Source: Trypanosoma brucei (lineage: Eukaryota). Taken from it: a stretch of 64,000 nucleotides of DNA. The stretch is from assembly GCA_000002445.1 (NCBI GenBank), contig CP000071.1:768001-832000 (forward strand), written 5' to 3'. Below the pieces are notes generated by a model. The model saw nothing but the letters and a program-made list of their open reading frames with translations, was not told the DNA's origin and did no database searches. Position numbers and translations under genes: made by a program. Of this stretch, positions 25,456 to 64,000 are shown in pieces (positions within the stretch are counted from its first letter, which is position 1; each line of letters opens with the position of its first letter).

Positions 25456-25528
25456 TCCTCCCTGGCGCAGTCGGCAGCGCGTTAGGCTGTTAACCTACAG
25501 GTCGTTGGTTCGAATCCAACGGGAGGAG
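25456..25528 (+). tRNA. tRNA-Asn (anticodon GUU), 73 nt
   Basis: Hand-folded cloverleaf. Acceptor stem TCCTCCC/GGGAGGA (7 bp, U1-A72). D-arm GCGC-AGTCGGCA-GCGC. Anticodon arm TTAGG-CTGTTAA-CCTAC (loop CU-GUU-AA). Variable loop AGGTC. T-arm GTTGG-TTCGAAT-CCAAC. Discriminator G. A T7 run follows immediately. The body closely resembles canonical eukaryotic tRNA-Asn. Confidence 0.85.
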
Positions 25529-25529
25529 C

Positions 25530-25612: not shown

Positions 25613-25613
25613 G

Positions 25614-25685
25614 TGAGGACTGCAGGGATTGAACCTGCGACCCCTGGATTTGGAATCCAATGCTCTACCACTGAGCTAAGCCCCC
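25614..25685 (-). tRNA. tRNA-Trp (anticodon CCA), 72 nt
   Basis: The minus strand reads GGGGGCT-TA-GCTC-AGTGGTA-GAGC-A-TTGGA-TTCCAAA-TCCAG-GGGTC-GCAGG-TTCAATC-CCTGC-AGTCCTC-A. The acceptor stem has two G-U pairs. The anticodon loop is UU-CCA-AA. A T5 terminator lies downstream. Confidence 0.85.
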
Positions 25686-32888: not shown

Positions 32889-33998
32889 ATGGACCCCTCT
32901 CAAGAGGGAGCAGAATACCTTACTGCCGTATTCGCAAAACTGGGAGTTCCCTGCAGAGTTGCGAACACAGTAGAGAAGGGGAAACACATTTTAGCAACGG
33001 CCGATATGCCGGCACAGTATAGCGTCTTTGAGGAAGCTCCAGTTGTTTCTTGGCCCTCACAGGGGTATCTTACCCTTGGTGTTCCTTTCTGTCTGTTCTG
33101 TCTTCGCCAGAGAAACAACGCTGATATTGCGGATGAAGGTGAACATAACTGGAACAGTTGTGCTGGATGTGGCTCCTTATTTTGTTCCGAGAGCTGCCTC
33201 GCCTCTGCGGAAATGCCTCACAGGGTCCTATGCGGTGTGCTACAGGAACTTCGGAAGCGTGAATGCACTGATGGTTGTTGTAGGCCTATCACAAAGGAGT
33301 CCTTAGCCAACTGTGTGGCGTGGGTTGTGGGCCGTATCGCAGGGGCAATAAAACAGCGACAATTTAGTGGAAAGCTGCTTGAAGAAAATCACAGGGAAAA
33401 CGCCAATAGTATATCTAGGCAACTCTTTCATGTTGTGACCGCGCCTTTCAATCGCTTTCTTGACGCCCCAAAAAATGCTGAGTTCGCTGACGTGGACGCC
33501 AACTCTTGGTACGAAGAGATCGACAAGTTGTTGCGGGAGCCTTGTCGCGCGGTCCTTCTACAGTCCGCCGCTGCACCACCATCCATTGGAGCAGATTGGG
33601 CACTCGAGATCGTTGACGGGTTGTTGCGTCATGACACGCTCGAGAGGTTCCTTGGAATATTAACACTAAATTCGCAAGGGTTGAATGGTTTTGTTGCCGT
33701 GCCCGGTGCAGCTGGGGATATGGATTCTCCTTCCTTACCCATTACATGGGTGCTGAAGGGTGGAGGCATATATTCCTTGCAATCTGCATTTAATCACTCC
33801 TGCGTACCCAATGTCGCGGTGTTGGCAGAGGGTGGTACGCATGATATAACACTGCGTACGCTTCGCGCAATCAAGAATGGAGAGGAACTGACCATCACGT
33901 ATATACCCGTAGAGAACACTACGCGTGCTGAGCGGCAAATGAAATTGGAAGGATATTTCTTCACATGCCGGTGTCCTCTTTGTGAAGAGGAAGAGTGA
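32889..33998 (+). CDS. SET domain protein with an MYND-type zinc-finger-like Cys cluster (SMYD-like lysine methyltransferase)
   Basis: C-terminal SET signature FNHSCVPNVAVLAEGG...GEELTITYIP and post-SET FFTCRCPLCEEEE. The Cys cluster CLFCLRQ...CAGCGSLFCSESC is MYND-like. The track ORF begins at a TTG (32739), with in-frame ATGs at 32799 and 32889. I chose 32889 because a strong polypyrimidine tract plus AG (ttcttcttcagcgttcgcctttattttgatcctgcttatag) lies directly upstream of it. The exact start is uncertain. Confidence 0.72.
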   Translation: MDPSQEGAEYLTAVFAKLGVPCRVANTVEKGKHILATADMPAQYSVFEEAPVVSWPSQGYLTLGVPFCLFCLRQRNNADIADEGEHNWNSCAGCGSLFCSESCLASAEMPHRVLCGVLQELRKRECTDGCCRPITKESLANCVAWVVGRIAGAIKQRQFSGKLLEENHRENANSISRQLFHVVTAPFNRFLDAPKNAEFADVDANSWYEEIDKLLREPCRAVLLQSAAAPPSIGADWALEIVDGLLRHDTLERFLGILTLNSQGLNGFVAVPGAAGDMDSPSLPITWVLKGGGIYSLQSAFNHSCVPNVAVLAEGGTHDITLRTLRAIKNGEELTITYIPVENTTRAERQMKLEGYFFTCRCPLCEEEE

Positions 33999-36088: not shown

Positions 36089-36396
36089 AGCGGTTGGAGA
36101 CGGAGACTGGAGAAACGGAGTGGACGCCCGTAGCCCGCGGGAGGTCGTTTTCAGCCTTTTTTACCGCCACACTGGCGCTTCCGTATGCATATCGTTGGCA
36201 TGTCCGTTGTACCCGTTACGCCTCAACGTTGCTTGAGCGTTGCTGCGAAACTGGATGTAATGGAACGTGTGTCTTAATAACATCATTGATGACATTTCCT
36301 TTCTCTCACCTCCGTTCTCTTCGCTGGAATGCATGTTTAGCCACCGGAGCACTTTTGTCAAAGTAGTCTTTGTACATACGTAATTTGGCAACAAAA

Positions 36397-38538
36397 ATGG
36401 CCACTGTCACGGAGGCACCTTTAAAGTCACCGCAGGATAGATTGGTGGAGCGCGTGTGCTCATCGGAGGAAGACGACTCTGGCCGTTACGTCATTGCAAA
36501 AGATGACATCAGTCCCGGTGAAATTGTATTGCTAGCAGCACCTTATGCGGTAGCCCTCAACCCCAACGAGGCTGTGAGCGCAATGTATGTGGCGGCCAAC
36601 GTGGAGGAGTGGGAAGATGCCTCCATGGGAGAACTGGCAGGACGCCGGGTCGGCCAGAGGGTCAAGAAGAGCGGCAACATCCCAACGGATGGTGGTGAAT
36701 ACGTGGCGTTGAGCCCGTGCGTAACATTCTGCTCCTGCTGTCTGCGACGCATTCCAACAGGTACGCCTTTCCTCAATTGCGAAACAATCGAGGTCCTTTC
36801 CCACTTAATTGCTGTGGAGCACGTTGAGAGTGAAAATGCAAAGTGGGAAAAAGAACGAGAGTCTCACCAACGAACTGGCTCTGATGCCGGCGATGCAGCC
36901 GATCTCGGAGATAGGATGCACATCAAGAAGGAAAAGAAATTGCAGAAGCCTGCCAGGTCTGCTAAAATGCGGTCGAAGGGGTATTTATCGCTGAAGCAGA
37001 GGTTGCTAGAGGCCGCCACTGCCCAACGTGAGTCCGCCATGTACGAAGCTCAGAAATTTGGTGGTGCGCTGGGCGACAGCAGTAGGAATATATCGTGGCC
37101 GGAACGAGTTGTGGAAAAGCACGTTCTTGAAGAAGACCTGCTGGTGCGAGGTGCGTGTGGCTGTGCTGGTTGCGGCGTAGCTATTTACTGCTCAAAGTCC
37201 TGTTGGCAGAGTTTTAATGAATTACACCGCGCTACGGGTGCGTGCCGCGTTTTGCGCGACGTTTATTCACCGCTGATGAGGATATTCTTGTCACGTATTA
37301 CAAAGGGAAACAAGGGAGGGTCCGCCGAAATTTTTTGTATTGACTCATGGAGCCCAAAGCACTGGCTTCGACGAACAACCGATGAGAAAGCATGGGAGAT
37401 GCTGCAGCTGCTTCTTGCAGCCCTTCTGGTGGGAAGGTGCGCGAAGGAAGGGTATGCAAACAATATGAGGGAGGAAGAGAAAGAGAGACAACACCCAGCG
37501 GAGAATGTGGACGACTATTATAGTGAAGAAGAGGACAGAGTTTGGGGAACCATGGGCGATGAGGAGTCTGCATCACCAAGAGACTGTGACCACCTCCAGG
37601 TCTCGAACACTCCAACCACGGGGACGAAGATAGAGGAGGACGGAGGTAGGGATGTGTCAATTACCGTGAACTCTGCAATTCCCCGTGAAGCGGAGGTAAT
37701 CCGCTTGGTACGTTCACGGATGGGCACAGCGGTTGAAGTTTTGGACTCTAGGGTGAATGAATGCGGAAAATGCCCCCCTAGTGTGGGAAGGATCCCAATG
37801 TCGCTTTGCGTGTCCATTAAGGACCATATCGTGCTAGGTATACGTGCAGACGGTTCCGAAACACATGCAATTCAGTGTCCACAATGGCCTGAAGCTGCCG
37901 CTCTGGTTACAAACCTTTCCGTGTTAAGGAAAGAGTCTCGGTCAGTGTTCCGCAGGTACTACCGCCGGTTTTGCCTGTCTGTGCTCCCTTGGCTGAACTG
38001 CAGTGAGGGGACCGACGAGCCACTCAGTGTTTCTTCCAGCTTCTTTGACCGCTTGTGCGGTGCCGTGCAGTGTAACAACTTTGGTTTGTTTGACCCCAAG
38101 GAAGACTGTATCGGTGTTTCCGTCATCCCAGAGGCCTCGTACTTCAACCACAGTTGTTTGCCAAACTTATGTCGTGTCATGTGCGACGGTGGCATTGCTG
38201 CGTTCTATGCGTTGCGCGAAATCCGCAAGGGTGAACCCCTCACTATTTGTTATGTGGATGTGCAGGAAGTATCAACAGCAGAACGCCGGCGTACGCTTCT
38301 TACTTCCTATCGGTTTTTCTGCCAGTGTAAACGCTGCAATGGGAGTAGCGTGGTTGACGACAAGACGGATGCTGACGCGGCCAAGCTGAGGTTGTGTGGT
38401 GCGTGTGCTGCGCGTGGTTACCTACGACCACTCCCACCTACTGACGCTGCTATCCTTTGTCGTTGGACAATGGACAGCATAGCAACCGGAGAGTGTACCG
38501 TTTGTCACAATCGAGCACCGTGGGGGGGGACTTCCTAA
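36397..38538 (+). CDS. SET domain protein with an MYND-like zinc finger (second SMYD-like paralogue, 713 aa)
   Basis: SET signature YFNHSCLPNLCRVMCDGGIAAFYALREIRKGEPLTICYVD and post-SET FFCQCKRCNG. The MYND-like cluster is CGCAGCGVAIYCSKSCWQSF...HRATGAC. There is a long Glu-rich insert. The track start at 36370 is a TTG. The first ATG is at 36397. Confidence 0.8.
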   Translation: MATVTEAPLKSPQDRLVERVCSSEEDDSGRYVIAKDDISPGEIVLLAAPYAVALNPNEAVSAMYVAANVEEWEDASMGELAGRRVGQRVKKSGNIPTDGGEYVALSPCVTFCSCCLRRIPTGTPFLNCETIEVLSHLIAVEHVESENAKWEKERESHQRTGSDAGDAADLGDRMHIKKEKKLQKPARSAKMRSKGYLSLKQRLLEAATAQRESAMYEAQKFGGALGDSSRNISWPERVVEKHVLEEDLLVRGACGCAGCGVAIYCSKSCWQSFNELHRATGACRVLRDVYSPLMRIFLSRITKGNKGGSAEIFCIDSWSPKHWLRRTTDEKAWEMLQLLLAALLVGRCAKEGYANNMREEEKERQHPAENVDDYYSEEEDRVWGTMGDEESASPRDCDHLQVSNTPTTGTKIEEDGGRDVSITVNSAIPREAEVIRLVRSRMGTAVEVLDSRVNECGKCPPSVGRIPMSLCVSIKDHIVLGIRADGSETHAIQCPQWPEAAALVTNLSVLRKESRSVFRRYYRRFCLSVLPWLNCSEGTDEPLSVSSSFFDRLCGAVQCNNFGLFDPKEDCIGVSVIPEASYFNHSCLPNLCRVMCDGGIAAFYALREIRKGEPLTICYVDVQEVSTAERRRTLLTSYRFFCQCKRCNGSSVVDDKTDADAAKLRLCGACAARGYLRPLPPTDAAILCRWTMDSIATGECTVCHNRAPWGGTS

Positions 38539-42552: not shown

Positions 42553-43569
42553 ATGTTCCGAAGGCTCACACAGTACACAGGAGTTGTAGGCGCTGTGCGC
42601 ACCATTGTTGTGTTCAGTCAACAGCACCACATACTGGAGAGCAATCAAAAAGCTCGGAGCAGCCCCAGCAACGTGTGGATCGAAGACTGGGAGGCTGAGA
42701 GCTATGGACTGACTCCAGAGCCTGGTGCCGTGTCCACGCAGCTGCTACTAGACAAGCCGCTCGAGCTATATAATTTCGATCAGCTCCTCTCTCCACCGGA
42801 GGTAATGGAGGCACCAAAGCACAGCAGTTACAGCTCCCGGAAGGTTTATGGTGAAAAGCTGCAATTCGAGCTCAATGATCGCGCTCAGAAGCATGGGTTC
42901 CACAGTAAGTGGTGGTTAACGAGAACGCAGGCTGTGAAGAACGCCCTCACGTTTAAAAACAACGCACGTAGCTCCATCATTCTCTCGAAGAGCTCACTCA
43001 GGTTGTACCACTCCAGTCAGTTGGTTGGCGGAGAAGCACTCATGACACATCCCGTATCAGGCGGCTCGAGGAAGCTCTACAGCAGGAAGGGAGATGCATA
43101 TCAGGTGCTGTGCGAACACATCCGTCAGAACGCCTTCAACAGCGGTCTCTACTTTACGAGACGGCAGCTGGAGTTCTTCAAGTTGGCGGTGCAGCCGAGT
43201 CAAGCACCTGTGATGATGGATGTCTCATCTGGGGAGCGGTTCCTCATCTTCAACGTGGAGCAACTCGAGGACCCCGAAGTGGCACTGAGGACTCTCGACC
43301 GCTCACCAGTGAGCATTCCGACCTTCCTTCTCTCAGGTGAACCGATGCAGCACGAAGGGGTAAAAAGGCTTCCCAGGTTTAAGAGCAATTACTGGCTAAG
43401 CGGGCGTGATGCTGAGCTGTACCAGTGGCCAATCAAAGAATCAGAGAAGAAGAGGGGAGTAACGCTAAAGAACGAGGGGAGTGCGTCGCTGCAGGTGGAG
43501 TTGTTTAACGTAGAACAGCTGGCAAACCCTGAAGAAGCATTCGCCAAGGCTGGACTCTTTGTCCAGTGA
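42553..43569 (+). CDS. Hypothetical protein (338 aa) with three internal [LF][YF]N[FV][DE]QL motifs and a presequence-like N-terminus; paralogue of the 45493 gene
   Basis: Motifs LELYNFDQLLSPPEV, FLIFNVEQLEDPEVA and VELFNVEQLANPEEA. Conserved block KHGFHSKWWLTRTQAVKNAL. The N-terminus MFRRLTQYTGVVGAVRTIVVF is basic/hydroxylated and amphipathic. Confidence 0.65.
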   Translation: MFRRLTQYTGVVGAVRTIVVFSQQHHILESNQKARSSPSNVWIEDWEAESYGLTPEPGAVSTQLLLDKPLELYNFDQLLSPPEVMEAPKHSSYSSRKVYGEKLQFELNDRAQKHGFHSKWWLTRTQAVKNALTFKNNARSSIILSKSSLRLYHSSQLVGGEALMTHPVSGGSRKLYSRKGDAYQVLCEHIRQNAFNSGLYFTRRQLEFFKLAVQPSQAPVMMDVSSGERFLIFNVEQLEDPEVALRTLDRSPVSIPTFLLSGEPMQHEGVKRLPRFKSNYWLSGRDAELYQWPIKESEKKRGVTLKNEGSASLQVELFNVEQLANPEEAFAKAGLFVQ

Positions 43570-45492: not shown

Positions 45493-46827
45493 ATGCGGTG
45501 TTCAGCGCGCCTTGCCGCTGTCTTTACGCCGGCGATGCCTCATTTGGATGCTTTTCTCAGACGTCACACCCGACCCGATCACCGATTGCGCCATCATCCA
45601 CTGTGGCTCAGTGAAGAAGACCTGCAGCACCTAGGAAACATTTCCATCGACAGGACGAACCATTGTGGCAGCAGTCTATGTAAAGCGGACGGGCCTCTAC
45701 CAACTGTGCTGGTGGAAGCTCCACGCACGGTTTTCCTCTACAACATGGACCAACTTCCTCCTGAATGCGAGGTCCGGTGGCAGTTTCCGCCCGTAGACGT
45801 GCCATCGTCGGTGAGCAGTATGACAGGTTACAAACTTAAATCCCGCGAACTACTGGAAAAAGCCCGCCATGAGATGGGCTACGAGTCCAACTGGTGGGGC
45901 ACAAAGGCGGCGTGGGCCAAGAAAGGAGTCATGGTGGATATGAACTTGCTACCCACGCCCGTTCCTTCATTACATGTCAGCCAATTCCTTCACATATCAT
46001 TCCTCGTGAACGGTGATCACGTATTGAAGAACTCGTACATCTCTGGGAAGACCGGATCATTAAAATCTTGGACAAGCCATGAGGGTGTACCATCGGCATA
46101 CGAGGATTTTCAGCGGCTGGTGAAAGAACATATGCAGGCCCATAGTTTTGCCTCTCCTCTATACTTCTCGGAGTCTTCACTCCGGAACGCAGGGATTTCC
46201 ATCCGGCCAGGTGTTCAACCCCTGGACTTTTCCGATGTTCAACACACGAACAGCTACATAGGGAACAGGAAACTTGCGCTTCAGGAACTCACAACTACCT
46301 ACCAACAATACTACCACTTGTCACAGCTTGTATTCCCAGCTGGCTACAGAATTCCACGGTCCGTAGTTGAGGTGGAGCGTCAGAACCCCGGTGTGCCAAT
46401 CCACGGAATGACTGGTCGATTGCTGAGTGTCCCTGAGCTACATCCCGAAGCAATCGTGAACTCCAGCGCACCTGAATTGGCACCGTTTGTGATGCGGGGC
46501 AGCAATGAGACCGGCAGTAATGAGCCCAACAATGTTTCATCAGTTGTGGACTTGGAATCCCCGTGTGCTGCGTATGGAAGGAACTTGTGGTACTTACCAC
46601 AAGACGTGCTTGAAGCGGGTGGTGTGGTTGATCCAAACGCAATGCCCGTGGAGGCTGCTGTTGGTAGTCACTCTGACAAGAGGCGGCGCAAACTTTACAA
46701 TGTCGAACAATTGGTGATTCCACTTGAGGGTTACAAAGCAGTTGGTTGCATTGCTACCATGAACCGTTTCGTTCAGTCAGACAAGCCGCCATGTGCTGGA
46801 ACCTTAGCGGGTGATGAGTTGGGGTAG
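45493..46827 (+). CDS. Hypothetical protein (444 aa), paralogue of the 42553 gene with the same repeated LYNxEQL motif
   Basis: VFLYNMDQLPPECEV and KLYNVEQLVIPLEGY. The block EMGYESNWWGTKAAWAKKGVMV aligns with KHGFHSKWWLTRTQAVKNAL of the neighbour. The N-terminus MRCSARLAAVFTP...RRHTRPDHRLRHH is presequence-like. Confidence 0.65.
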   Translation: MRCSARLAAVFTPAMPHLDAFLRRHTRPDHRLRHHPLWLSEEDLQHLGNISIDRTNHCGSSLCKADGPLPTVLVEAPRTVFLYNMDQLPPECEVRWQFPPVDVPSSVSSMTGYKLKSRELLEKARHEMGYESNWWGTKAAWAKKGVMVDMNLLPTPVPSLHVSQFLHISFLVNGDHVLKNSYISGKTGSLKSWTSHEGVPSAYEDFQRLVKEHMQAHSFASPLYFSESSLRNAGISIRPGVQPLDFSDVQHTNSYIGNRKLALQELTTTYQQYYHLSQLVFPAGYRIPRSVVEVERQNPGVPIHGMTGRLLSVPELHPEAIVNSSAPELAPFVMRGSNETGSNEPNNVSSVVDLESPCAAYGRNLWYLPQDVLEAGGVVDPNAMPVEAAVGSHSDKRRRKLYNVEQLVIPLEGYKAVGCIATMNRFVQSDKPPCAGTLAGDELG

Positions 46828-49352: not shown

Positions 49353-52300
49353 ATGAGCCAAAGCCGTGTTCCTATAAGGTATGGAGCCTTTATTCACCTC
49401 TCCTGCGACGAAGGGTACGTTACAGCGGGAGGGTTGGGTAATGAAGGGTTGTTCATACGGAACAAGAATGAGCTAAGCGACGATGCCGAGCCACTACCGC
49501 TTTTTGGGTTTGAAACAAGCGTTTTTCAGATCCTACCTCCAACAGTGGCTAAAGTCGCGGCAGAGGAGGGGTTGAGCAAAGGCAACCGGGCTCCAAACAG
49601 CAACCCTCTTTCGGACGGTGTCAGTAATATTTACTCGACACAACAGGTGACTTTCGGGCAATTGTTTGTGCTGGTCCATGCGGTGAGCCGCCTACACGTG
49701 GCGGCACTGCCGTCGGAACCTTCTGAGAGGGACCCTGACTGCGCCCGGCTTGTGCTCGCACCGCCTGGTGAAATTGAGCAAACCTTCTGCCAGTTTATCT
49801 TCACACCGCGTTACACAACGCACGGTGAAGGAGATGTCGTGTGCCGAGGTGATGAAGTATTGGTGCAGCTGTCCAGCATCCCTATATTCCTTCAAACTAC
49901 GGTGGTGTCACCTACACGCCCGGTAAAACACGAAACTTTTGGAAGTGCAAGCTTCCCCTACGAACCGACTGATGGATGTGGACGTGGGAACAGTTGGAGT
50001 GCTGGCACCCGTATGGCACTATCTGCTGTGTTGGGAGCACCAGAGGTTAACTTATCGGAGGCAAAAGCACTCGTTTTTGTTGTTGAGCGCTATGACATCG
50101 ATCGAGATAAAGCGGAACATCAACGTATTCTGCACCGCATCCCCCGGCCGTGCGTTTCCGCAGGTGTGCCGGTAATATTTTACCATCTCGAGCACAAGCG
50201 GGTACTGGCTACGAGTGTCGCAATGCCCCCTTGCCAAGGGGGTGGCAAGATTGGAGTGTCAGGCGTGGCGCCAAGGGGCAATGAAGGTGGTGGGGAACGC
50301 GATCATTTGCTCAAGACAAGACAGACTCACTCAGTGATGGGAAATGTTACCGTGATATGCCACGCTTCAGGGAGGTTTGCTGCGGCGGGGAGTTCGAAGT
50401 CGCAGGGAAGTGATTCCCATTCCGCAGGAGCGACAAGCCTCGACTCCGACCCATGTAGCACTAAAGGAAAGGCACCCGATGACCGTAAAAGGGTGAATGG
50501 TGTCGGTGGTGCCGCCCTCCCGCTCTTCGCAGTGGATAAGGGTGTAGCTGATGGAACGTTCAGTGAAGAGGGAGCCCTCAGCGGGTTGCAGTGCAGTTGC
50601 ACCGCTTTGTGGATATTAGAAAACGAGCAACCAACGGTAGGTGGGGCCGTGAATATGAATTCGGGAGTGTATCGCCTCCGTCAAGCCTGTTCTAACTTAT
50701 ACGTTGCTGTGGAAGGGTCAGCCGTTGATACTATACTTGAGGGGGACGGTTCTCCTGAGGGATCTGTTGTGTCGCAGAGGTCCTGTTGTAACCTCACTGG
50801 AGATATCGTAAACGAGGAGGGGGGTGATGTGGTTCGCCCCACAACGCTGTCCATGATTCCGCCACCACGTACACCGAAAGACCTTCAACGCACACTTTTC
50901 AGACTAAGCCCCATGTTTAACACAGATTGCGGGTATCTTATCGAGAATGACTGCTTGCTACTGCAGAACGTCGCCACAGACATGTATCTGTGCACAAGTG
51001 AGGGAAGTGAAACTCTTTCTCTATCATGGAAGCCATCAAATATTGATTTGATAGTCGTCCGAAGGGCCGCAACGGACGTCCAGGATAGCGTCCTATTTCT
51101 TTGGTCCCAATGTGAAACACTTAGTGGGTACCGTGATGCCTTCCAGGTACTGACAACGGAAGGAACGGCAACGCACCAGCAACAAACGGAAACGGACGGT
51201 GAACATGGACAGGGCAGGTATCCTTCGGCAGAAGGCTCAACCAGCCCCACTCTGATGGAAGGAAGAATGGCAATTGTATCGGATTATAATCACATTCCAG
51301 AAAGTTTTGTACGACCTAGCAAAACGTGCCCCAAAGGCAGTAACGTAGGTACTGGTTATGCTTCGCTTCTTCCGGTTATTTGTGCCTGCCAGCGTACACT
51401 CGCCGAGCTCATAATTTTTTGTTCAATCTCTCCTGAACGAAATGTTCTGCGAAGAGACGGCATACCTATCCCGAACCACCAGCATATGTTGGTTGAACTG
51501 TGCGTTCACCGCCTAGTTATTGATGTTATTCTCGCCCCCTTTTCAAAGTTTGGGGTGAGAGCTGACCGATCGGTGGGAAAGCATGCACAATGCTGCGGGC
51601 AGTGGGGCTGTTCTTCTTGGCTTCCACCGCTTCCACTGTCTGGCGGAGTGGTGGATGTTAACGACCTTTTACTGAAGATGCACCGAGAGATTCATATCGT
51701 CTGTCGTCTTGGTTTTCGACTCTTAAGGCAAATGGTCCGTCAAGCGCCGGAGCTCAAGGCAGGGTTTGAAAACTATATACCGTATTTTCTGGCTTTTGAC
51801 GGGTACAAGCTAGAGGTTGTCGATTCGCTGACAAGGCTCTTTTCGGAGAACCCCGCCGTGAGGAACTCATCTTTGGAACTTGTGGTTAATCACTACATCG
51901 CTGGCCTCCACCTCACGCGTTCCGGAAGATATCTGCAGTTGCTATGCTCCATGTGTTCTGTTGGGACCCACGGCGTGACGGAACGTCAGCGACTTGTGTG
52001 TCAAAAACTTCTCGTTGAAAATGCTAACGCATTGTACAGCTTTGTGCTTGATAGTGGCGGCGAGTGGGCCGTTAAAACTGACAAGGATGAACCGCCAATA
52101 CCGTGTAACATCCTTTTTTCAGGACAGCAACAAGACGGCGGAGAAGAGGAAGGAACGAAGCTGAGGGAATACGTGCAGAGCGAATTGGAGCTACTGGGTG
52201 CCCTGTGTCTGGATGGGTGCCCACCTTTATGTAGGGAAGAAGTAGCCAAAGTGTTCCCTTCACCAGTGCTCCTGATGGCTTTACGCAACTTTTCGCCGAA

Positions 52301-55300
52301 ATGGCCTGAAGTGAGCGACCGGTCGCGCGTCTGTGACGTTGTGCGGAGTCATTTAATACGTCTCGCAATGCACTGCTACATCCTTCCATATATCGATGAC
52401 CCAGCTGTGCAGCTACGCGAGGGCGCCGTCCTGCTAGGTTCCAGCAAGTTGCATCTCAAAGTCGATGAAAAAACAGCCTTCTCTGGCAAGCCGGACAGTG
52501 AACTCACCCAGGCTGTGAAAGAGGGAACACTCCACGTCATCCGTTCTAACACCCATTTTGTACGGTCTGACACAGGCCGTAGTATATTGATTCGTGCCGC
52601 ATTAGCGGCATGGCTGCGGTTCGTTAGTGCACATCAGGTTTCCGCCACGGAGACAGCCTGTCTGGTACCGTTGCTTCTAGAGCTTCTTGATAGTAGAGAC
52701 GACGAGGCTCACGACGGCAGCAGCAAAATAGCGGAATACACATGGACACGCCTTGAAGTATCCGAAGCGGGACTGCTCGTTGTTCGGGCTCGAGAGATGA
52801 TTTGTCAGATCCTTCTGCAAATTCTTGAGACCGCTACTTACCGCGCAGCAAATGAAATTAACCTACTGCTGCATGGTATTTTGGTTACTGACCACGGCGC
52901 CAGCCTCGCCCACCAGCACGATTATTGTTCGTTACTCCGCAGGGCGGACGTCTCTTCGACCGGAGACCCGTTTGTCACATCCCCAACCGAAAGAGACGCA
53001 CTGCTGTGGCACAAAGGCAAGGCCAATGACGGTAATGGAAACCGTTGCTTTGGATTGAACAGACGCAAGGGGCCCAGCGACTACCAGTCGACGGTAGCCG
53101 GTAGCGCCGTGACCACGCAGCTCAGTGGCTCCACAAAGGATGTTGCCGCCTTCTTAGATTACGTCAAAGGCATCTGCAGTTGCATCGTGCGCCCACTCCG
53201 TGTTGATCAGCTGGTACCACGGCTCGTCGATCTTGCACACCACGATGGATCACAATTGGCACCATACGCCATGGAGTTGCTCGTTCGAATCTGCACGGTG
53301 AGGCGCAGTGTGGCCCGTCTCGTGCTTCAAGTGCATCCTTTCCCCTCCTCCGAAGTGATTCAATGTTTTGACAATATGTATTTTGCTGCTGTTCAAGTGC
53401 GGTCATCATATATTCGAGGATCCGTGGAGGAGGCCATTGATGTTGCCCTCCAGGGCATCGACGGGTTAAGCACTCAAACTCAAAACGAGGTGACAGGCAC
53501 AACGAATGAGGGTAGAGTGGATGACGGAGGCACCGACGAGTACTATAATGATTTAACGGAGGATGACGAGGAGATCGAAGAAATAGGTATTTGTGAAGAA
53601 CAAGAAGTTGAGGCAAGCTCTTCGTCAGCCCCCGAAGACCAACATGAGGTCGGAGGGGAAAGCAAAGCACGGCGCCTGTGGTCAAAGGCAGCTGGTGCGG
53701 CCCGCATCGTTGTGTATCGAAACGCCATAATTGCACGCCGACGTTCTGTTGGACTAAGCGAAACGTCGCGCGTCCCGCTTCGCGTTGTTGTCCGTGCGGA
53801 GACAGTACGCCATTGGCAAGTGCACATAACTATGCTCGAAATGTACCCGTTCATCGGCCCGTCGAGCCCTGCGTTCAGCAAGTGGATGCGTTTCTTTTAT
53901 GTTTTCACGTTATCCCAAAGTAATGCCGAGTCGCTGAAGGCCTACATTGATATATTTATGGGGGCCTTCAACCTTAGCAGCAACTGCGTTGTTATGGGCC
54001 TCCATATTGTCCTCAGTATTCTCGCGACAATCAAAGATCCAACACCACACCTAACTGACGCATTTCTCCGCGAGTCCGCCCGTTACATTGATGGAGAAAT
54101 TGCTGCTCTTCACCCCGACGGAGAGTTTGCCACCAAGTTGGGTCTCCACGTCTTCACCAAGACCACGGTTGGGGGCATTCCGCGACGTCGTATGTTACAG
54201 CTGTTGCGTGACTATGATGCCTTCCGCTGCCTCCCCTCACCCGGAGTGACCGAGAAGCACGGGCGGGGTCGCTTCACAGCTTGCATCGTTGAGATGGTTT
54301 GCCGCATTTGCGGTACATCAATGGGTGCCGTGGCGCTGGGGCGGTCGGCTCTGCCAGTGACTCATCTCTTAGAAATCACGCTGAGCTATGGCACATCCTA
54401 CACCCCCCTGGTAGAGGTGCCGCGGCCCCGTGCATTGTGGGAAAGTAACTCGTTCCATCTTCTCGGTGCTTATCTGTTGGCGCTCGTGTCGCTCTACATT
54501 GCCGCGGGCGACGCAGGGGGAGACGGGGGTCGAAGACAACGGCAGATGGAATGGATGGCGAACCGTGACTGGTGGTCGGTTGTGCTTTTGCTTTCACGGC
54601 AGCTAAAAGAGCTCACACGGCTAATGCAGTCTAGAACAGAGACTGTGCTATGGCGGGGACGCCGCATTCTGCAGCGGTATCGCCGGTTGTGGCTTGTCAA
54701 TTTACCGCTGGCACTGTTAACTTTCATGACAGAATGTTTTAATGAGGCAGGTTTTTACAGGTACCGGGACGTTGTGGGAGCTACCTTCCACGAAATGTGT
54801 ATGAGTGTCGCCGGGTTTAGCGAAGTGCTCCTCGCAAGTGCTGATGCGATACGGCTGCAGGCAAGAGAGATGGTGGGTTACCGCCGCCTCGTGGCCCTTC
54901 TCCAGGTCCAGACGGGAAACCTCGTGGGTCACGAGCTTCTTTCAGGCACGATGTTGACGACGCGACGCAATCTACGACACGGCGTTATCTGCTACTATAA
55001 GAAAATAAATGAGGCCGAAGAAGAGGCCCGCGGACTACACCCGGACGCTCTCCTGTTGGCCGAGACCGGACCCCAGGCTGAAAACGACGGCATCCAGGGT
55101 GGTTTAATTGCAACAGCGGATGTACCCACGCACACACAAAACGATGCAGACGACTCGTCCCCTATGGGATTACTAATATCTGGTGCTGCGACGAAATGTC
55201 TTGATGCGGAGCGACTCCGTGGTGCACTGCGCAGTCTTGTGAACCGTGACCAACTGATCACCATGGAGGACAGCACGGACCTAGGTGAGCCGGCTGGGAT

Positions 55301-58300
55301 CATGAACGCCCTTTTGTTAAGCTGTCGAGAACGGTCAAATGTTCTAGACTTTGTGTCCACGACTCTCGGCTGCATGCGGGAGCGATCCTTTGGTTCCATC
55401 ACCCTTATTGGTATGCTAAACATTTTCTCCAATGCGCTACATACAGCACTCAGAGAACAGGAGAGAGAAAGACTGAAACATGTTAGTGCTGAGAACTCGT
55501 CGGTGATCACCGACATTTTTACGGTGAGGAGTTTTGAAACCGACTATGCAAAGGAGAATGCGGGAAGGCTACTGCAGACGACGTTCAGTGATCTCGGTGC
55601 AACGCGCGCTATTGCGTCCCTCTGCGCAGTGGACGACCAGGTAGTGGCCTACAGTGCTGTACAACTCTGTGTTGGTCTCCTCGAGGGTGGTAATGAGCAT
55701 GCCCAGAAAGCCCTTCTCGCATATTTCCAAGAGCACCAAGAGAGATTCTTTCACAACATTCGAGACATGCTTCACAAAGCCGTGGATTGGGTGCAGTGTA
55801 CCAACGCAGAACACCAGATCGTTGTGCTTGAGAGGGGTGGAGTGGTTCCTAACGTATCCAACGCACACGAATTCACCCGCATGCTTCTGACAAACGCACT
55901 CACCACGCCCCCATCGCTCTACAGCAGTCTAAAAGTGAGGGTCGGACGCGGTACAGCGGTTGCAAGAAGACGACTTTCCGCGTGGGACCGAGCAGGCGGA
56001 AGTCTCAACCAACGTTTCGTTTGCACCCTATTTCGTATGCTCCAGCTCTTCTGTGAAGGGCACAACCTCAGTATGCAGAACTACATCCGCTCGCAGTACG
56101 ATAATTTGCATAGCGTAAATGCTGTGCATGAAGTAATGAACCTCATTACGGAAATAGCCGCTGTTGTCCACCCGGCCACCGTCCGGATGCTTCAGAGTGC
56201 ATTCGCGCTCCTAACTGAGCTGTGCCAAGGGCCATGTCATGAAAATCAAGAGGCCCTGCTGGGTTACGGTGTGTGTGTCGTTATCAGCAAGTTGCTCAGC
56301 CGCCTGAATTTGCCGGACGTGACGGGCACTCCATCCACTGGAACAGGCATTACAAACTGGGGCGGCGGTGACAGCAACAGTACTGATAACAAGGCTTCGG
56401 TCGACTGCTGCACCCTGAATGAAACAGATAGCGAAGGCAACGCTTTTTTACGTCTACAAGGCGGCTTTTTACTAAGCAAGGACGATGCTGGAAACCTCCG
56501 TATTGCACTCACACAATGCCTACTCTCGCTTATCGAGGGATGTCGTTCACGGGACGTATTCCACCAACTGCTGGAACAGATTCCAGTCGAAGTTATCGAG
56601 CGCGAGCTAACCACGGTGGACCCAGGGGCGTACGACAGCATTCTTGAAAATGAGGAACTGGCGAGTGACCCGGGTGTGGAGGCCCTCTTCAACTGGCTTA
56701 TTTTCCTGAAGACTGTCAGACCGTACGCGGAGGCCGATTACTTGAAACGGATTGATGCAATGCTTCAGCACACAAATAAACTATGCACTCGCCTCGGATT
56801 CATTGAAATACAACGTGCGGATGGAATGCTGGAGAAAGTGCTGTTCCGCATTCCACACGTCTGGCGCGGGTTGATGCGTAGGAATAGGAAGCAGATGCTG
56901 GCGGAAATTAACTGCAGCAGTCGTGCAGCGAAGCTCGGAGACTTTATGTACCACAGTGACAACGTGATCTTTGAAGTGGAACGTAGCTATGCATTCCAGT
57001 GCTGGGTAGAGCGCCGCACACGCTGGAGGTTGGACAACAGAAGTAGCGGTTGGAGAGGTAAAGAGTGTGATGCCGGCAAAGTCGATACTTCAGTCGACGC
57101 AGGCAAACCTAGGTGGACCCCAAAATGGAAACAATGCTCAGATGCGCCCAAATATTTCTGGAACCATTTCATTGCACCCGTACTGTTTTGCACACACCTC
57201 GGTTTTTACGAGTACAGCTCCCTCCTCGTCGCTGTGGTTTTGAACATTGCTTTGATCAACGGCGAGGGGCGTCATCGGAATCTGGAAGAATCCCAGCTCT
57301 GGGCTAACATCATATCTGGCCTGTGTGTCCTGCAGCTTGTGTTGTCTTTAATTGCAATAACTGTGGATACTATTGTCTTTTTCCCGGTGTCGCTGTACGT
57401 ACACTACCGCCAGAAACAGCAGCGGTTTTCCGGGCGGGCGAAGTTCAACGAAACATTGCAAGGGGTTTTACGTGGGTTGAGTGCGAAAGAAATCAGTTTA
57501 CTGCTTGTGACGCGCTTCAGTTTCCAATATCGCTTACTTTTGGTTGTCATGGCGGTTTTAAGCATCTTCGTTTCATATTACTTTGCTGCCGCACACCTTA
57601 CGCTTATGGTTTACACGTTTCCCACACTTCGTACCTTTGTTAGCGCCATCACGCACAATGGCCGACAGTTACTCCTAACGGCCCTGCTTGGTGTCATGGG
57701 ATTGTATCTTTTTGCCATCGCGGGCCGCATTATGTTCCCTGAGCAATTCGGAAGCAACGGTGAGGTCGACGAAAACTCGGGGAAGAAAAACGACGAAAAT
57801 GGAAACTGCGACACATTGCTGCGCTGTTTTACATTTATTCTGTGGCAGGGGCTGCGGCAGGGTGGTGGCGTCGGGGATGTCATGGATGAGGTATCATGGA
57901 ATAGCTCAACACTTGTACCACGGGTGAGCTACGATCTCATTTTCTTCGCTCTTGTAAATGTTGTCTTCCTCAACATCATGTTTGGTATCATAATTGACAC
58001 TTTCGGTGAGTTGCGCGACGACCGACGAGAGAGGGAAAACGAACTGAGGAGCACCTGCTTTATCTGCGGCCTAGACGCGGACACACTTGAAAAGGGCCAA
58101 GTGGGCGGTTTCAGGGCTCATGTGGAAGACGCACACAATATGTGGATGTACCTTTACTTTATTCACTACCTCCGTCATAAGGACCCGAACGAGTTTACTG
58201 GTCAAGAGTCGTACGTCCACGAGAAGATTCAAAGGAATGACCTCTCCTTCTTTCCGGAGGAAGACTGTCTTGCGTTACAAGAATGCAGGGAGGGCAACGG

Positions 58301-58652
58301 CAAGAGAACTGGAGATGACGAGGCTGATAGTGATGACGAGCTTGCGAGCAGCGTTGTGGTAGGGGGCAGTGCACCACGCGGACCAAAGCCTGAGAGTGCA
58401 CATCCCGATACCGGTGTGAAACTTGTGTTGAAGGAGCTGGCAGCTGTGCGTGAAGCTGTCAGTGCCCTTGCGCGGGAGGCCACAATGGAAGGGGAGCGGA
58501 CGAGGGGACTCGCCCAGCAGCTAGAGCTCATAAACCGCAGCAGCCAGAGCTCATCACTGCGGAAGTTTCCCGGCGGGGGCAGCGCAGCATCGGTTGCTGA
58601 GACGAGCACAAGCAAGGGGACGTGGTTGCGGCACTCCGAACCAGAACACTAA
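49353..58652 (+). CDS. IP3R: Inositol 1,4,5-trisphosphate receptor / ryanodine-receptor-family intracellular Ca2+ release channel (3099 aa)
   Basis: The C-terminal channel domain has about 6 hydrophobic helices (e.g. FIAPVLFCTHLGFYEYSSLLVAVVLNIALING, LLLVVMAVLSIFVSYYF, LIFFALVNVVFLNIMFGIIIDTFGEL). The pore-loop selectivity filter is LRQGGGVGDVMD (GGGVGD is diagnostic of IP3R). This is followed by CFICGL and a coiled-coil tail. The giant N-terminal regulatory region matches the family's size. The exact length, 3099 aa, matches what I recall for the T. brucei acidocalcisomal TbIP3R. Confidence 0.93.
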   Translation: MSQSRVPIRYGAFIHLSCDEGYVTAGGLGNEGLFIRNKNELSDDAEPLPLFGFETSVFQILPPTVAKVAAEEGLSKGNRAPNSNPLSDGVSNIYSTQQVTFGQLFVLVHAVSRLHVAALPSEPSERDPDCARLVLAPPGEIEQTFCQFIFTPRYTTHGEGDVVCRGDEVLVQLSSIPIFLQTTVVSPTRPVKHETFGSASFPYEPTDGCGRGNSWSAGTRMALSAVLGAPEVNLSEAKALVFVVERYDIDRDKAEHQRILHRIPRPCVSAGVPVIFYHLEHKRVLATSVAMPPCQGGGKIGVSGVAPRGNEGGGERDHLLKTRQTHSVMGNVTVICHASGRFAAAGSSKSQGSDSHSAGATSLDSDPCSTKGKAPDDRKRVNGVGGAALPLFAVDKGVADGTFSEEGALSGLQCSCTALWILENEQPTVGGAVNMNSGVYRLRQACSNLYVAVEGSAVDTILEGDGSPEGSVVSQRSCCNLTGDIVNEEGGDVVRPTTLSMIPPPRTPKDLQRTLFRLSPMFNTDCGYLIENDCLLLQNVATDMYLCTSEGSETLSLSWKPSNIDLIVVRRAATDVQDSVLFLWSQCETLSGYRDAFQVLTTEGTATHQQQTETDGEHGQGRYPSAEGSTSPTLMEGRMAIVSDYNHIPESFVRPSKTCPKGSNVGTGYASLLPVICACQRTLAELIIFCSISPERNVLRRDGIPIPNHQHMLVELCVHRLVIDVILAPFSKFGVRADRSVGKHAQCCGQWGCSSWLPPLPLSGGVVDVNDLLLKMHREIHIVCRLGFRLLRQMVRQAPELKAGFENYIPYFLAFDGYKLEVVDSLTRLFSENPAVRNSSLELVVNHYIAGLHLTRSGRYLQLLCSMCSVGTHGVTERQRLVCQKLLVENANALYSFVLDSGGEWAVKTDKDEPPIPCNILFSGQQQDGGEEEGTKLREYVQSELELLGALCLDGCPPLCREEVAKVFPSPVLLMALRNFSPKWPEVSDRSRVCDVVRSHLIRLAMHCYILPYIDDPAVQLREGAVLLGSSKLHLKVDEKTAFSGKPDSELTQAVKEGTLHVIRSNTHFVRSDTGRSILIRAALAAWLRFVSAHQVSATETACLVPLLLELLDSRDDEAHDGSSKIAEYTWTRLEVSEAGLLVVRAREMICQILLQILETATYRAANEINLLLHGILVTDHGASLAHQHDYCSLLRRADVSSTGDPFVTSPTERDALLWHKGKANDGNGNRCFGLNRRKGPSDYQSTVAGSAVTTQLSGSTKDVAAFLDYVKGICSCIVRPLRVDQLVPRLVDLAHHDGSQLAPYAMELLVRICTVRRSVARLVLQVHPFPSSEVIQCFDNMYFAAVQVRSSYIRGSVEEAIDVALQGIDGLSTQTQNEVTGTTNEGRVDDGGTDEYYNDLTEDDEEIEEIGICEEQEVEASSSSAPEDQHEVGGESKARRLWSKAAGAARIVVYRNAIIARRRSVGLSETSRVPLRVVVRAETVRHWQVHITMLEMYPFIGPSSPAFSKWMRFFYVFTLSQSNAESLKAYIDIFMGAFNLSSNCVVMGLHIVLSILATIKDPTPHLTDAFLRESARYIDGEIAALHPDGEFATKLGLHVFTKTTVGGIPRRRMLQLLRDYDAFRCLPSPGVTEKHGRGRFTACIVEMVCRICGTSMGAVALGRSALPVTHLLEITLSYGTSYTPLVEVPRPRALWESNSFHLLGAYLLALVSLYIAAGDAGGDGGRRQRQMEWMANRDWWSVVLLLSRQLKELTRLMQSRTETVLWRGRRILQRYRRLWLVNLPLALLTFMTECFNEAGFYRYRDVVGATFHEMCMSVAGFSEVLLASADAIRLQAREMVGYRRLVALLQVQTGNLVGHELLSGTMLTTRRNLRHGVICYYKKINEAEEEARGLHPDALLLAETGPQAENDGIQGGLIATADVPTHTQNDADDSSPMGLLISGAATKCLDAERLRGALRSLVNRDQLITMEDSTDLGEPAGIMNALLLSCRERSNVLDFVSTTLGCMRERSFGSITLIGMLNIFSNALHTALREQERERLKHVSAENSSVITDIFTVRSFETDYAKENAGRLLQTTFSDLGATRAIASLCAVDDQVVAYSAVQLCVGLLEGGNEHAQKALLAYFQEHQERFFHNIRDMLHKAVDWVQCTNAEHQIVVLERGGVVPNVSNAHEFTRMLLTNALTTPPSLYSSLKVRVGRGTAVARRRLSAWDRAGGSLNQRFVCTLFRMLQLFCEGHNLSMQNYIRSQYDNLHSVNAVHEVMNLITEIAAVVHPATVRMLQSAFALLTELCQGPCHENQEALLGYGVCVVISKLLSRLNLPDVTGTPSTGTGITNWGGGDSNSTDNKASVDCCTLNETDSEGNAFLRLQGGFLLSKDDAGNLRIALTQCLLSLIEGCRSRDVFHQLLEQIPVEVIERELTTVDPGAYDSILENEELASDPGVEALFNWLIFLKTVRPYAEADYLKRIDAMLQHTNKLCTRLGFIEIQRADGMLEKVLFRIPHVWRGLMRRNRKQMLAEINCSSRAAKLGDFMYHSDNVIFEVERSYAFQCWVERRTRWRLDNRSSGWRGKECDAGKVDTSVDAGKPRWTPKWKQCSDAPKYFWNHFIAPVLFCTHLGFYEYSSLLVAVVLNIALINGEGRHRNLEESQLWANIISGLCVLQLVLSLIAITVDTIVFFPVSLYVHYRQKQQRFSGRAKFNETLQGVLRGLSAKEISLLLVTRFSFQYRLLLVVMAVLSIFVSYYFAAAHLTLMVYTFPTLRTFVSAITHNGRQLLLTALLGVMGLYLFAIAGRIMFPEQFGSNGEVDENSGKKNDENGNCDTLLRCFTFILWQGLRQGGGVGDVMDEVSWNSSTLVPRVSYDLIFFALVNVVFLNIMFGIIIDTFGELRDDRRERENELRSTCFICGLDADTLEKGQVGGFRAHVEDAHNMWMYLYFIHYLRHKDPNEFTGQESYVHEKIQRNDLSFFPEEDCLALQECREGNGKRTGDDEADSDDELASSVVVGGSAPRGPKPESAHPDTGVKLVLKELAAVREAVSALAREATMEGERTRGLAQQLELINRSSQSSSLRKFPGGGSAASVAETSTSKGTWLRHSEPEH

Positions 58653-61518: not shown

Positions 61519-62683
61519 TGGCACAGAGGGTAACGAAGTAGGAATTTTTGCCGCCAGCTGAGGTCGTTTACCTTGGGTTGGCTGTCATGGAGATAGGGAA
61601 GAGAGAAGCAACATCGCGTGCAAGGAAAAACGAACAGAAGAATCGATCCCTCCCCCCTCCATGAGTCCTTCTTCGTTTATAATTTCGGCTGTTGTTTTTG
61701 CTGTCACCTTTTTTTTTCTTCCTTCTCGTTCGCCACACCCTCTCCTCAACCTCCTTTACCTCCATGGATCTCTCGGCAGCAGTCCCCCTCCCCTCATTCC
61801 CCTCATGTTTTGGTGGTCGCCTTATTGGCACCTCTTTTCGTCATTTTTTCCCCCCACTTGCTGCAGTTCAAGGCGTATTTGTGGGGAGAGTAAAGAACAT
61901 AAGTGAAATCTGAAAACAATAGAAAAGAGAGATGAATTAATTAATGAATGAATGGGAGAAATAAGGAGGAGAGGTGGTGGAGAGCTGGGGAACTGTAATG
62001 AAGAAGAAAAAAAAGAAGAACGAGGGAAAGGTAGATTCAGTGGGGGAGACAAAACAGTGAAGAAGAATCTGGCGGAAAGCAACAATAAGTGTGAAAATGA
62101 GAACGAAGGTGTGAATGATTCTTCAGTTTAAGAAACCACACGTGAAGAAGGACAGAATATATAAATAAATATATCTATTTATATGTTGATGTCTCAGAAG
62201 AAAAAAAGCAAAGGAGGGGAGATAGAAGAGGTTTAAAGGGAGGAAGGAAGACAGGCCCTGAAACCAATAAAACAAAATAAATAAATAAAGAAACGCGAAA
62301 TCAAAACTGAAAATGCGAAAAAAAAAACGAAGAACAAGAAGGGTGCAATGAAGGAATGAACTCCACAGAGAGAATACCCGTTCAAACATTCTTTTCTTCG
62401 TTTTTCCCCTCCTCCTCTCCCCGACGCAACCGCCCCCCTTTTTTTTCTATAATTGGCTCTTCTGACCCACACCCCCTCACTTTCCTTCTCAAAGAACGGC
62501 ATCTTGTTTTCCCACCCTTTATTATTGTTAATTTCTTTTTTCGCTTTACTATTATTATTATTATTTACCACCCCATCACCGTTACTTTTAGTTGTTTTTT
62601 TTTTTTTTATGCCTCTCTCCTTTCATTTTTTTGCGCTTTTGCTCCTCCTTATTGGTTATGTAGAGCGATTTATATAAATCTAA

Positions 62684-62704
62684 TATATATATATATATAT
62701 ATAT
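62684..62704. repeat. (AT)10 microsatellite
   Basis: atatatatatatatatatata. Confidence 0.85.
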
Positions 62705-62976
62705 TTGTATTCATATATTTTATGTCTTATATACATAACTACTTTCGCGCAGAAAAGGGAAAGAGGAAAGGAGAAGAAGGGGGAAAATAGAAAGCCCATG
62801 CACATATATATATATATATATTTATTTATTTGTTTATTTATTTATATATATATATATATGTATTCTTTGTACCTCCCTTTCGTTTTTACTTTGTTTTTTG
62901 TTTTACCTTTTTTTTGTTTCTACTTTGTTTCTTGTTTTGTTTACTGTTAGTCACTCCTTACTATTTTTACCGCCTC

Positions 62977-63112
62977 TATTATTATCACTATTATTATTAT
63001 TATTATTACTATTATTATTCCTATTATTATTATTATTATTCCTATTATTATTATTATTATTATTCCTATTATTATTATTATTCCTATTACTACTGCTATT
63101 ATTATTGTTATT
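62977..63112. repeat. Imperfect (ATT)n / (TTA)n trinucleotide repeat, about 135 nt
   Basis: tattattatcactattattattattattattactattattattcctattattattattattattcct... It produces spurious poly-Y/poly-L ORFs in the track. Confidence 0.9.
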
Positions 63113-64000
63113 TCTGGGGCTACTGCAGTGCTTTCCCTTTCTTTTTCTTTGGGTGTTCGCGTGGTTGAGATTGTGATGTGACTTCTGTTTGCTGACGATT
63201 GTTTGTTTCTATTTGATTGTGCCGGTGTCTGTTTTCCCCCACCCCCGTGATGTCACGAAGAAAAACAAAAATTAAATTGAAAAGTTTTTACTTCTCCTCG
63301 TCCAAAGCAATTGCTCTCCTCCTTCCTTTTCTCCACACGCGCGCACGTACGTAGTGAACTAATCAAAGAGTGAAGAAATAAAAATAAAAACACGCGTCGT
63401 GTTGTGGATCCCTTTTTCGGATCCAATTTGCGCTATTGCTTTTTTTTGTTAGTATTATTGTTTTGTGCTTTTTTTTTTCTTTTTCTGTGTGTGTAATATG
63501 ATTTTGTCGCTTTTCATTCAGCGGAAGCAGACAGTAAAGTTATGGGCTCATATGCTTGCATGTGCATTCCATCCGATATTGCGCGGGAGTTGTTGTTTTG
63601 TTTTGTTTTTCACACCTTCGTCCCTTTTTTTTTTCTTTTTGGTTTTTATTGTTTGTATATATTTTCATATTTATGTACATATATTAGGAGCAAATGCATG
63701 CGTGTTTGTGCTTTAACGCCCATGTGTGCGCCCCTTGGCTTGCTTTCCCACAAATACCCTTTCGAAACGCCTTACGGAAGCGGGGACAATATAATTAAGA
63801 AGAAAGGGAGATGGGGGGGAAAAAAAAAAGAGAAAGAGAAAGAGAAACACCGGCTCGTAGACATGAGGAGAGGAATCAAAAAAAAGACAATGAAATGAAA
63901 TAAAGTTAAGTGAAGTGAATTGAAACGAGGTAAGAATTTAAGAAGTTAAGAAAGCTGGTGACCCGCCGTCGCTTTTCTACTTCATTCCACTCTTTTTTTT

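Follow-up and report, generated by a model that had tools for sequence, protein, structure and literature searches.

A stretch of 64,000 nucleotides of Trypanosoma brucei DNA (contig CP000071.1, positions 768,001 to 832,000 of the forward strand), referred to here as the window, contains at 49353..58652 on the + strand the already characterised T. brucei gene TbIP3R (Tb927.8.2770). TbIP3R encodes a Ca2+ channel of the inositol 1,4,5-trisphosphate (IP3) receptor (IP3R) family and is not a new gene. The open reading frame (ORF) starts with an ATG at 49353, its stop codon ends at 58652, and its 3099 codons run without interruption; the same frame has a stop 22 codons before the ATG. The chance that 3099 random codons would be free of stops is about 10^-64.6. 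By exact look-up, the product is 100% identical (3099/3099 amino acids, 0 differences) to XP_847110.1 of T. brucei brucei TREU927, the same entry as AAZ13044.1 and UniProt Q57XB2, which is annotated 'Inositol 1,4,5-trisphosphate receptor'. A preliminary description of the window, made from the letters alone, had proposed this identity correctly. Prole and Taylor 2011 (PMC3194816) listed XP_847110 as the IP3R homologue of T. brucei, and reviews give the gene identifier Tb927.8.2770 (PMC6027440, PMC9799330). The published mass is 343 kDa (PMC4263762), in agreement with the 342.5 kDa per subunit calculated from the sequence, which supports the identity. The ORF and the acidocalcisome receptor known from the literature are thus one gene, with no difference between them. 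Scans with Rfam and for tRNAs and tandem repeats were without any match inside the gene.

The orthologues in T. congolense, T. theileri, T. conorhini, and T. cruzi are 60-43% identical to TbIP3R over the full length, and the T. equiperdum and T. b. gambiense proteins of the same cluster differ from it at 4-14 amino acids and have the same 3099-amino acid length. This closeness bears on whether the ORF might be a non-expressed or decaying gene copy, a reading that nothing was found to favour and that has almost no probability: its 3099-codon frame is intact, the closest relatives within the T. brucei subspecies and T. equiperdum keep its length, the functional residues described below are invariant across kinetoplastids, and the protein has been detected by 22 peptides and an antibody (PMC4263762). 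Pseudogene status was rejected, the proteomic detection already refuting it.

Domain order and family membership

The features of the gene, in order along the + strand, are as follows (residue numbers are those of TbIP3R unless IP3R1 is named).

49353..58652, + strand: complete TbIP3R coding sequence, 3099 amino acids plus stop (ORF list, translation, exact-sequence look-up)
49362..49982, + strand: beta-trefoil 1, a suppressor-like domain, residues 4-210 (Pfam PF08709, hhalign, weak matches to ryanodine receptor (RyR) and IP3R structures)
50028..51158, + strand: beta-trefoil 2, MIR-like, the beta part of the IP3-binding core, residues ~226-602 (hhalign, collinear with IP3R1 226-440)
51396..52034, + strand: ARM1 or first RIH domain, the alpha part of the IP3-binding core, residues 682-894 (Pfam PF01365)
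52080..55895, + strand: central regulatory region, residues ~910-2181 (hhalign; between ARM1 and the RIH-associated domain of IP3R1)
56007..56297, + strand: RIH-associated domain with the cytosolic Ca2+-sensor residues, residues 2219-2315 (Pfam PF08454)
57198..58007, + strand: transmembrane channel domain with S1-S6, pore helix, and the gate in transmembrane helix 6 (TM6), residues ~2616-2885 (hydropathy, Ion_trans, alignment to PDB entries)
57852..57887, + strand: selectivity-filter segment LRQGGGVGDVMD, residues 2834-2845 (motif search; alignment to IP3R1)
58056..58136, + strand: C2H2 zinc finger of the linker domain (invariant in 15/15 aligned sequences)

Pfam matches were judged against the curated cut-offs, and four domains of TbIP3R lie above them: Ins145_P3_rec (PF08709; residues 4-210, E=2.8e-67, 226 bits against a cut-off of 23), RIH (PF01365; residues 682-894, E=1.9e-9, with one RIH copy only detected), RIH_assoc (PF08454; residues 2219-2315, E=3.6e-29), and Ion_trans (residues 2733-2891, E=2.9e-16). 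The preliminary description had named RIH, MIR, and Ion_trans as the families to look for. The first and the last are present above cut-off, but MIR is not: it has no match on full-length TbIP3R and, with the insertions excised, reaches E=0.047 and 14 bits, below its cut-off of 25.6. The region lacking this signature is still collinear with beta-trefoil 2 of IP3R1 in hhalign. On residues 901-2200, no Pfam domain was matched. MIR is also missing from every precomputed Pfam list of the Trypanosoma orthologues, among them the T. cruzi receptor TcIP3R (TcCLB.509461.90), which have the same four Pfam domains as TbIP3R. These orthologues also share its insertion-rich N-terminus and the conservation of its pore, Ca2+ sensor, and zinc finger, but their insertions differ in length and composition.

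Among solved structures, the best relatives are IP3R2, IP3R3, and IP3R1 (E ~1e-60, 208 bits in the PDB search). Residues 2811-2985 drive the scores to IP3Rs and RyRs; the alignment to ITPR2 covers its residues 2341-2642, of which the part 2476-2642 accounts for 154 bits. The earlier assignment of the ORF to the IP3R/RyR channel family is upheld by these matches and by the four Pfam domains, Ion_trans and RIH being present and the top matches being IP3R1-3 rather than an unrelated channel family.

Within that family, the pore and C-terminal region also matches RyR2 (E=4.5e-52, 179 bits) and RyR1 (~1e-50), the N-terminal profile described below weakly matches RyR domain-A structures, and the loss of IP3-binding residues is itself RyR-like (PMC3194816). 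RyR1-3 share with TbIP3R the pore, the Ca2+ sensor, the zinc finger, and the N-terminal beta-trefoil fold, and TbIP3R and the RyRs both lack the basic IP3-binding residues. That the protein is a RyR orthologue and not an IP3R is nevertheless very improbable, as IP3R1-3 outscore every RyR (208 versus 179 bits), no SPRY or RyR-repeat match was found by Pfam anywhere in the 3099 residues, IP3R1 aligns collinearly with both the N-terminal and the central region, the length is IP3R-like (TbIP3R is ~1900 amino acids shorter than RyR1-3), and trypanosomatids are without RyR orthologues according to reviews (PMC6027440). RyR orthology was rejected on the higher IP3R scores, the missing SPRY and RyR repeats, and the collinearity with IP3R1.

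By score, domain content, and collinearity, the sequence places TbIP3R nearer the IP3Rs than the RyRs, and with it the full IP3R domain order can be read from end to end: beta-trefoils 1 and 2, ARM1/RIH, a long helical regulatory region, the RIH-associated domain, six transmembrane helices, and a zinc-finger linker. Mammalian IP3R1-3 (PDB 3JAV, 7LHE, 6DQJ) are collinear with it in domain order over most of the length, TbIP3R being ~350 amino acids longer because of insertions. Like its relatives, it is presumably tetrameric.

Pore, gate, and Ca2+ sensor

The filter GGGVGD occupies residues 2837-2842 (G2837 and D2842 conserved) and aligns to 2544-RSGGGVGD-2551 of IP3R1. Both the filter and the longer pore-loop motif that the preliminary description had quoted, LRQGGGVGDVMD, are therefore present, the latter at residues 2834-2845. 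Hydropathy gives five strong peaks, at residues 2616-2635, 2648-2684, 2722-2753, 2771-2796, and 2858-2885; since residues 2722-2765 align to both S3 and S4 of the mammalian IP3R, six transmembrane helices are assigned by homology, in keeping with the six-helix bundle proposed before. In TM6, the gate residues N2874, F2877, and I2881 are invariant, and F2877 and I2881, which make up the hydrophobic gate, are identical to those of IP3R1.

The residues that form the cytosolic Ca2+ sensor in IP3R1 were taken from a cryo-electron microscopy (cryo-EM) paper (PMC9663519), with E1978 located in 'LCENHN' and E2042 in 'LTEYCQGPC'. All five are identical in TbIP3R: E1978, H1980, N1981, E2042, and Q2045 correspond to E2235, H2237, N2238, E2289, and Q2292. 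IP3R1 E2101 is also conserved, as E2395. In the linker, C2902, C2905, H2923, and H2928 form a zinc finger of the type C-x2-C ... H-x4-H that corresponds to C2611, C2614, H2631, and H2636 of IP3R1. The CFICGL element noted earlier lies at residues 2902-2907 as claimed; the accompanying H-x-H does not hold, the actual spacing being H-x4-H in HVEDAH (residues 2923-2928). The Ca2+-sensor, gate, and zinc-finger residues are invariant across the aligned kinetoplastids, and mammalian IP3R1-3 share with TbIP3R the GGGVGD filter, the TM6 F/I gate, the C2H2 zinc finger, the Ca2+-sensor glutamates, and the E2101 equivalent. The ATP pocket is kept in part. R2509, R2512, N2929, M2930, and W2931, the last three adjoining the zinc finger, are retained or conservative, while Y2228 and K2633 of IP3R1 are replaced by L2516 and E2925.

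At the level of sequence, TbIP3R is a Ca2+-release channel of the IP3R type in which the pore and the Ca2+-activation site are intact. Because all side-chain ligands of the Ca2+ sensor are conserved, we infer that cytosolic Ca2+ activates it as it does the mammalian IP3R and RyR.

The ligand-binding region and the response to IP3

The preliminary description had seen only weak resemblance to the metazoan receptor over the first ~2500 residues. This is true of pairwise comparison, in which residues 1-900, searched against the PDB with phmmer, matched nothing better than the ARM1 segment of IP3R1 at E=0.11, but it does not hold for profiles. Besides the Ins145_P3_rec match (E=2.8e-67), a profile of six Trypanosoma N-termini matches IP3R1 534-665 at E=1.5e-8 against the PDB and weakly matches N-terminal domain structures of RyRs and IP3Rs. 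The distant profile matches are collinear, with beta-trefoil 1 followed by two to three beta-trefoil-2 segments and then ARM1. When 12 kinetoplastid N-termini were compared with 13 canonical IP3R N-termini by hhalign, the probability was 100% (E=3.6e-48, 618 columns, TbIP3R 1-901 versus IP3R1 1-657), and for the central regions (TbIP3R ~910-2181) the same kinetoplastid-to-canonical comparison gave a probability of 98.2% (E=6.1e-14, 1043 columns). The conserved beta-trefoil-2 stretch 'TALWILENE...YRLRQACSNLYVAV' of TbIP3R pairs with 'KALWEVEVV...FRFKHLATGHYLAA' of IP3R1.

Among 1.84 billion representatives, the Trypanosoma N-terminal profile recovers 270 proteins at E<=0.001. A word-indexed homologue search with residues 1-900 (49353-52052) returned one T. 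cruzi fragment and missed the protein's own cluster; since 270 relatives turned up in the exhaustive profile search, that single match reflects a limitation of the index. Word indices are of uncertain sensitivity for insert-rich, low-complexity queries of this kind, and the full-length query did recover the orthologues. An AlphaFold2 model of residues 1-900, built with the six-sequence Trypanosoma alignment, was unusable (mean predicted local distance difference test score (pLDDT) 33.7, predicted template modelling score (pTM) 0.24).

Insertions in TbIP3R lie at residues ~190-225, 300-390, 458-500, 600-670, and 735-763; the ligand-binding region is broken up by large ones that are lineage-specific, as are those at 300-390 and 458-500 within beta-trefoil 2. 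The one at residues ~300-390 (window positions 50250-50520) is Gly/Ser-rich and poorly conserved, is located within beta-trefoil 2, and adjoins the expected IP3-contact loop; each Trypanosoma species has it in a different length and composition, with poly-Asn at this place in T. theileri. The insertion at residues ~600-670 is poly-Glu in T. theileri.

On these alignments, TbIP3R is an IP3R homologue over most of its length that has been lengthened by insertions, and its true divergence is confined to the ligand-contact residues, the MIR signature, and the insertions themselves. The description of its ligand-binding region as highly divergent is in that sense accurate, and Prole and Taylor 2011 (PMC3194816) had previously remarked on it.

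What is said here of the protein in the cell comes from two reviews (PMC6027440, PMC9799330) and a 2014 proteomics paper (PMC4263762). Through their summaries of Huang et al. 2013 and Potapenko et al. 2019, they are the source for acidocalcisome localisation, gating by IP3, and regulation. TbIP3R was located in acidocalcisomes by endogenous tagging, by a specific antibody that co-localises with TbVP1, and by 22 proteomics peptides (PMC4263762). As summarised in passages of one review, IP3 evokes Ca2+ release when TbIP3R is expressed in DT40 cells without endogenous IP3Rs, TcIP3R behaves likewise in such cells, and IP3-evoked release from permeabilised trypanosomes is reduced by RNA interference (RNAi) against TbIP3R (PMC6027440). 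Passages of the two reviews add that under this RNAi both life stages grow less, IP3 evokes less release, and the parasite is less infective (PMC6027440, PMC9799330), and a passage of the second describes nuclear patch-clamp recordings in which luminal orthophosphate (Pi) and pyrophosphate (PPi) stimulate the channel and polyP3 and acidic pH are inhibitory (PMC9799330). Both the acidocalcisome localisation and the drug-target interest that the preliminary description had put forward are thus already in the literature (PMC6027440, PMC4263762, PMC9799330, PMC3194816). Compared with the mammalian IP3R, which is a receptor of the endoplasmic reticulum (ER), the trypanosome protein differs in its organelle and, according to that literature, in its regulation by luminal Pi, PPi, and polyP.

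A mechanism that would combine these reports with the sequence can be outlined as follows. TbIP3R would sit in the acidocalcisome membrane and pass stored Ca2+ to the cytosol on arrival of IP3, which would be sensed through residues other than the mammalian ones; cytosolic Ca2+ would open the channel through the conserved sensor site; luminal Pi and PPi would stimulate it, and polyP3 and acidic pH would inhibit it; and growth in either life stage, and likewise infectivity, would depend on the channel. Taken whole, with this mechanism included, a single-copy TbIP3R gene encoding an IP3R-family intracellular Ca2+-release channel is the best explanation of the locus, and we hold it with very high confidence.

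Several points weigh against it, among them the IP3-contact positions. The contact list was taken from the same cryo-EM paper (PMC9663519), with the SI- form of vertebrate IP3R1 as reference sequence, and the canonical coordinating set tested was R265, T266, T267, R269, R504, K508, R511, Y567, R568, and K569. In alignment to IP3R1, this canonical set is not kept in TbIP3R. All seven ARM1 contacts are substituted (7/7): R504 is replaced by P707, R506 by H709, K508 by H711, R511 by V714, Y567 by A798, R568 by P799, and K569 by E800, a mapping that is identical in five analyses (phmmer, hmmsearch, two MAFFT alignments, and hhalign). T. cruzi keeps slightly more basic residues, with R at the R506 and K508 positions and K at R568, where T. 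brucei has H, H, and P. For the beta-trefoil-2 loop, MAFFT E-INS-i aligns R265-T266-T267-G268-R269 with the acidic VDKGVADGTFSEEG (residues 394-407), just before the 'TALWILENE' strand, whereas hhalign pairs 'VFLRTTGRQ' with 'HLLKTRQ' (K321/T322/R323; LKTRQ at residues 320-324), before the ~90-amino acid insertion. The two methods thus disagree on whether that insertion comes before or after the loop, and the mapping of the loop is ambiguous. The sub-threshold MIR signature counts in the same direction, and in comparison with mammalian IP3R1-3, it stands beside the seven changed ARM1 contacts and the two changes in the ATP pocket. Outside the sequence, the IP3 dependence of TbIP3R is a reported one, taken from review summaries; early T. 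cruzi experiments, as one review recalls, found no Ca2+ release by added IP3 (PMC7040492); and in one T. cruzi study, on which PMC4263762 and PMC7040492 comment, the overexpressed orthologue was assigned to the ER.

TbIP3R could be an IP3R by descent that is mainly regulated by Ca2+ and phosphate, in the manner of RyR-like Ca2+-induced Ca2+ release, with an IP3 sensitivity that would be weak, non-canonical, or indirect through loss of the canonical IP3 pocket. The seven substituted ARM1 contacts and the ambiguous or acidic beta-trefoil-2 loop would fit such a channel, as would the fully conserved Ca2+-sensor and gate residues, the stimulation by luminal Pi and PPi described in a passage of PMC9799330, and the early T. 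cruzi experiments without IP3-evoked release (PMC7040492). We consider it improbable, however, given the reports, in passages of PMC6027440, that both TbIP3R and TcIP3R release Ca2+ on IP3 in DT40 cells lacking IP3Rs and that RNAi cuts IP3-evoked release from permeabilised trypanosomes. Moreover, some basic and histidine residues are still close to the cleft (H709, H711, K802, R792, R796, K321, and R323), and a pocket could be rebuilt from them.

An IP3-responsive TbIP3R is the reading we retain, and what changes is the manner of recognition. With 7/7 ARM1 contacts changed and a beta-trefoil-2 loop that is acidic or else shifted by the ~90-amino acid insertion, IP3 must, to judge from the alignments, be recognised differently from mammalian receptors, by residues other than the canonical ARM1 set. 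More specifically, and with considerable doubt, TbIP3R may sense IP3 via a rebuilt pocket of different chemistry (for example H709/H711 together with residues of the kinetoplastid-specific insertions), or its physiological trigger may not be IP3; if this unlikely proposal were true, the parasite would have a specific ligand site distinct from that of the host receptor. Nothing in the published picture of TbIP3R is contradicted by the current analysis.

Genomic surroundings and significance

The sizeable ORFs of the 64-kb window are all on the + strand, which fits the established organisation of kinetoplastid genes in polycistronic units; among their products are methionine synthase, a kinesin, a ubiquitin E1, a Kelch protein, SET-domain proteins, Tc-38-like proteins, a GTPase, and an RRM protein. 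The Kelch-protein ORF at 17065-22824 encodes 1919 amino acids, with a short Kelch-repeat stretch at residues ~1500-1590 and no Pfam match in the remainder. Between it and a Methyltransf_28 ORF, an ORF-poor gap in this otherwise single-strand (+) array contains tRNA-Asn(GTT) at 25456-25529 (+) and tRNA-Trp(CCA) at 25613-25685 (-), which converge on an 83-nucleotide gap. Two neighbouring SET-domain ORFs, 32739-33998 and 36370-38538, encode putative lysine methyltransferases, and 42553-43569 and 45493-46827 are tandem paralogous ORFs of the Tc-38 (p38) family with a weak ArdC-N-like domain; the Pfam description of Tc-38 gives it as a name only, 'Trypanosoma Tc-38 (p38) protein'. GC falls to 0.34 at 62001-64000, the end of the window. 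This stretch, probably an intergenic or untranslated region, has a 34-bp T-rich direct repeat at 62870-62938 and, after it, a (TAT)45 microsatellite at 62977-63112.

TbIP3R is a biologically important protein whose identity and role have been in the literature since 2011-2013, so that its rediscovery in the window adds no knowledge. The useful outcome is at the level of residues: the Ca2+ sensor, pore, gate, and zinc finger are intact in the alignments, and the ARM1 half of the IP3 pocket is wholly replaced. This pairing of an intact gating apparatus with a replaced ARM1 sharpens the question of how TbIP3R recognises IP3.

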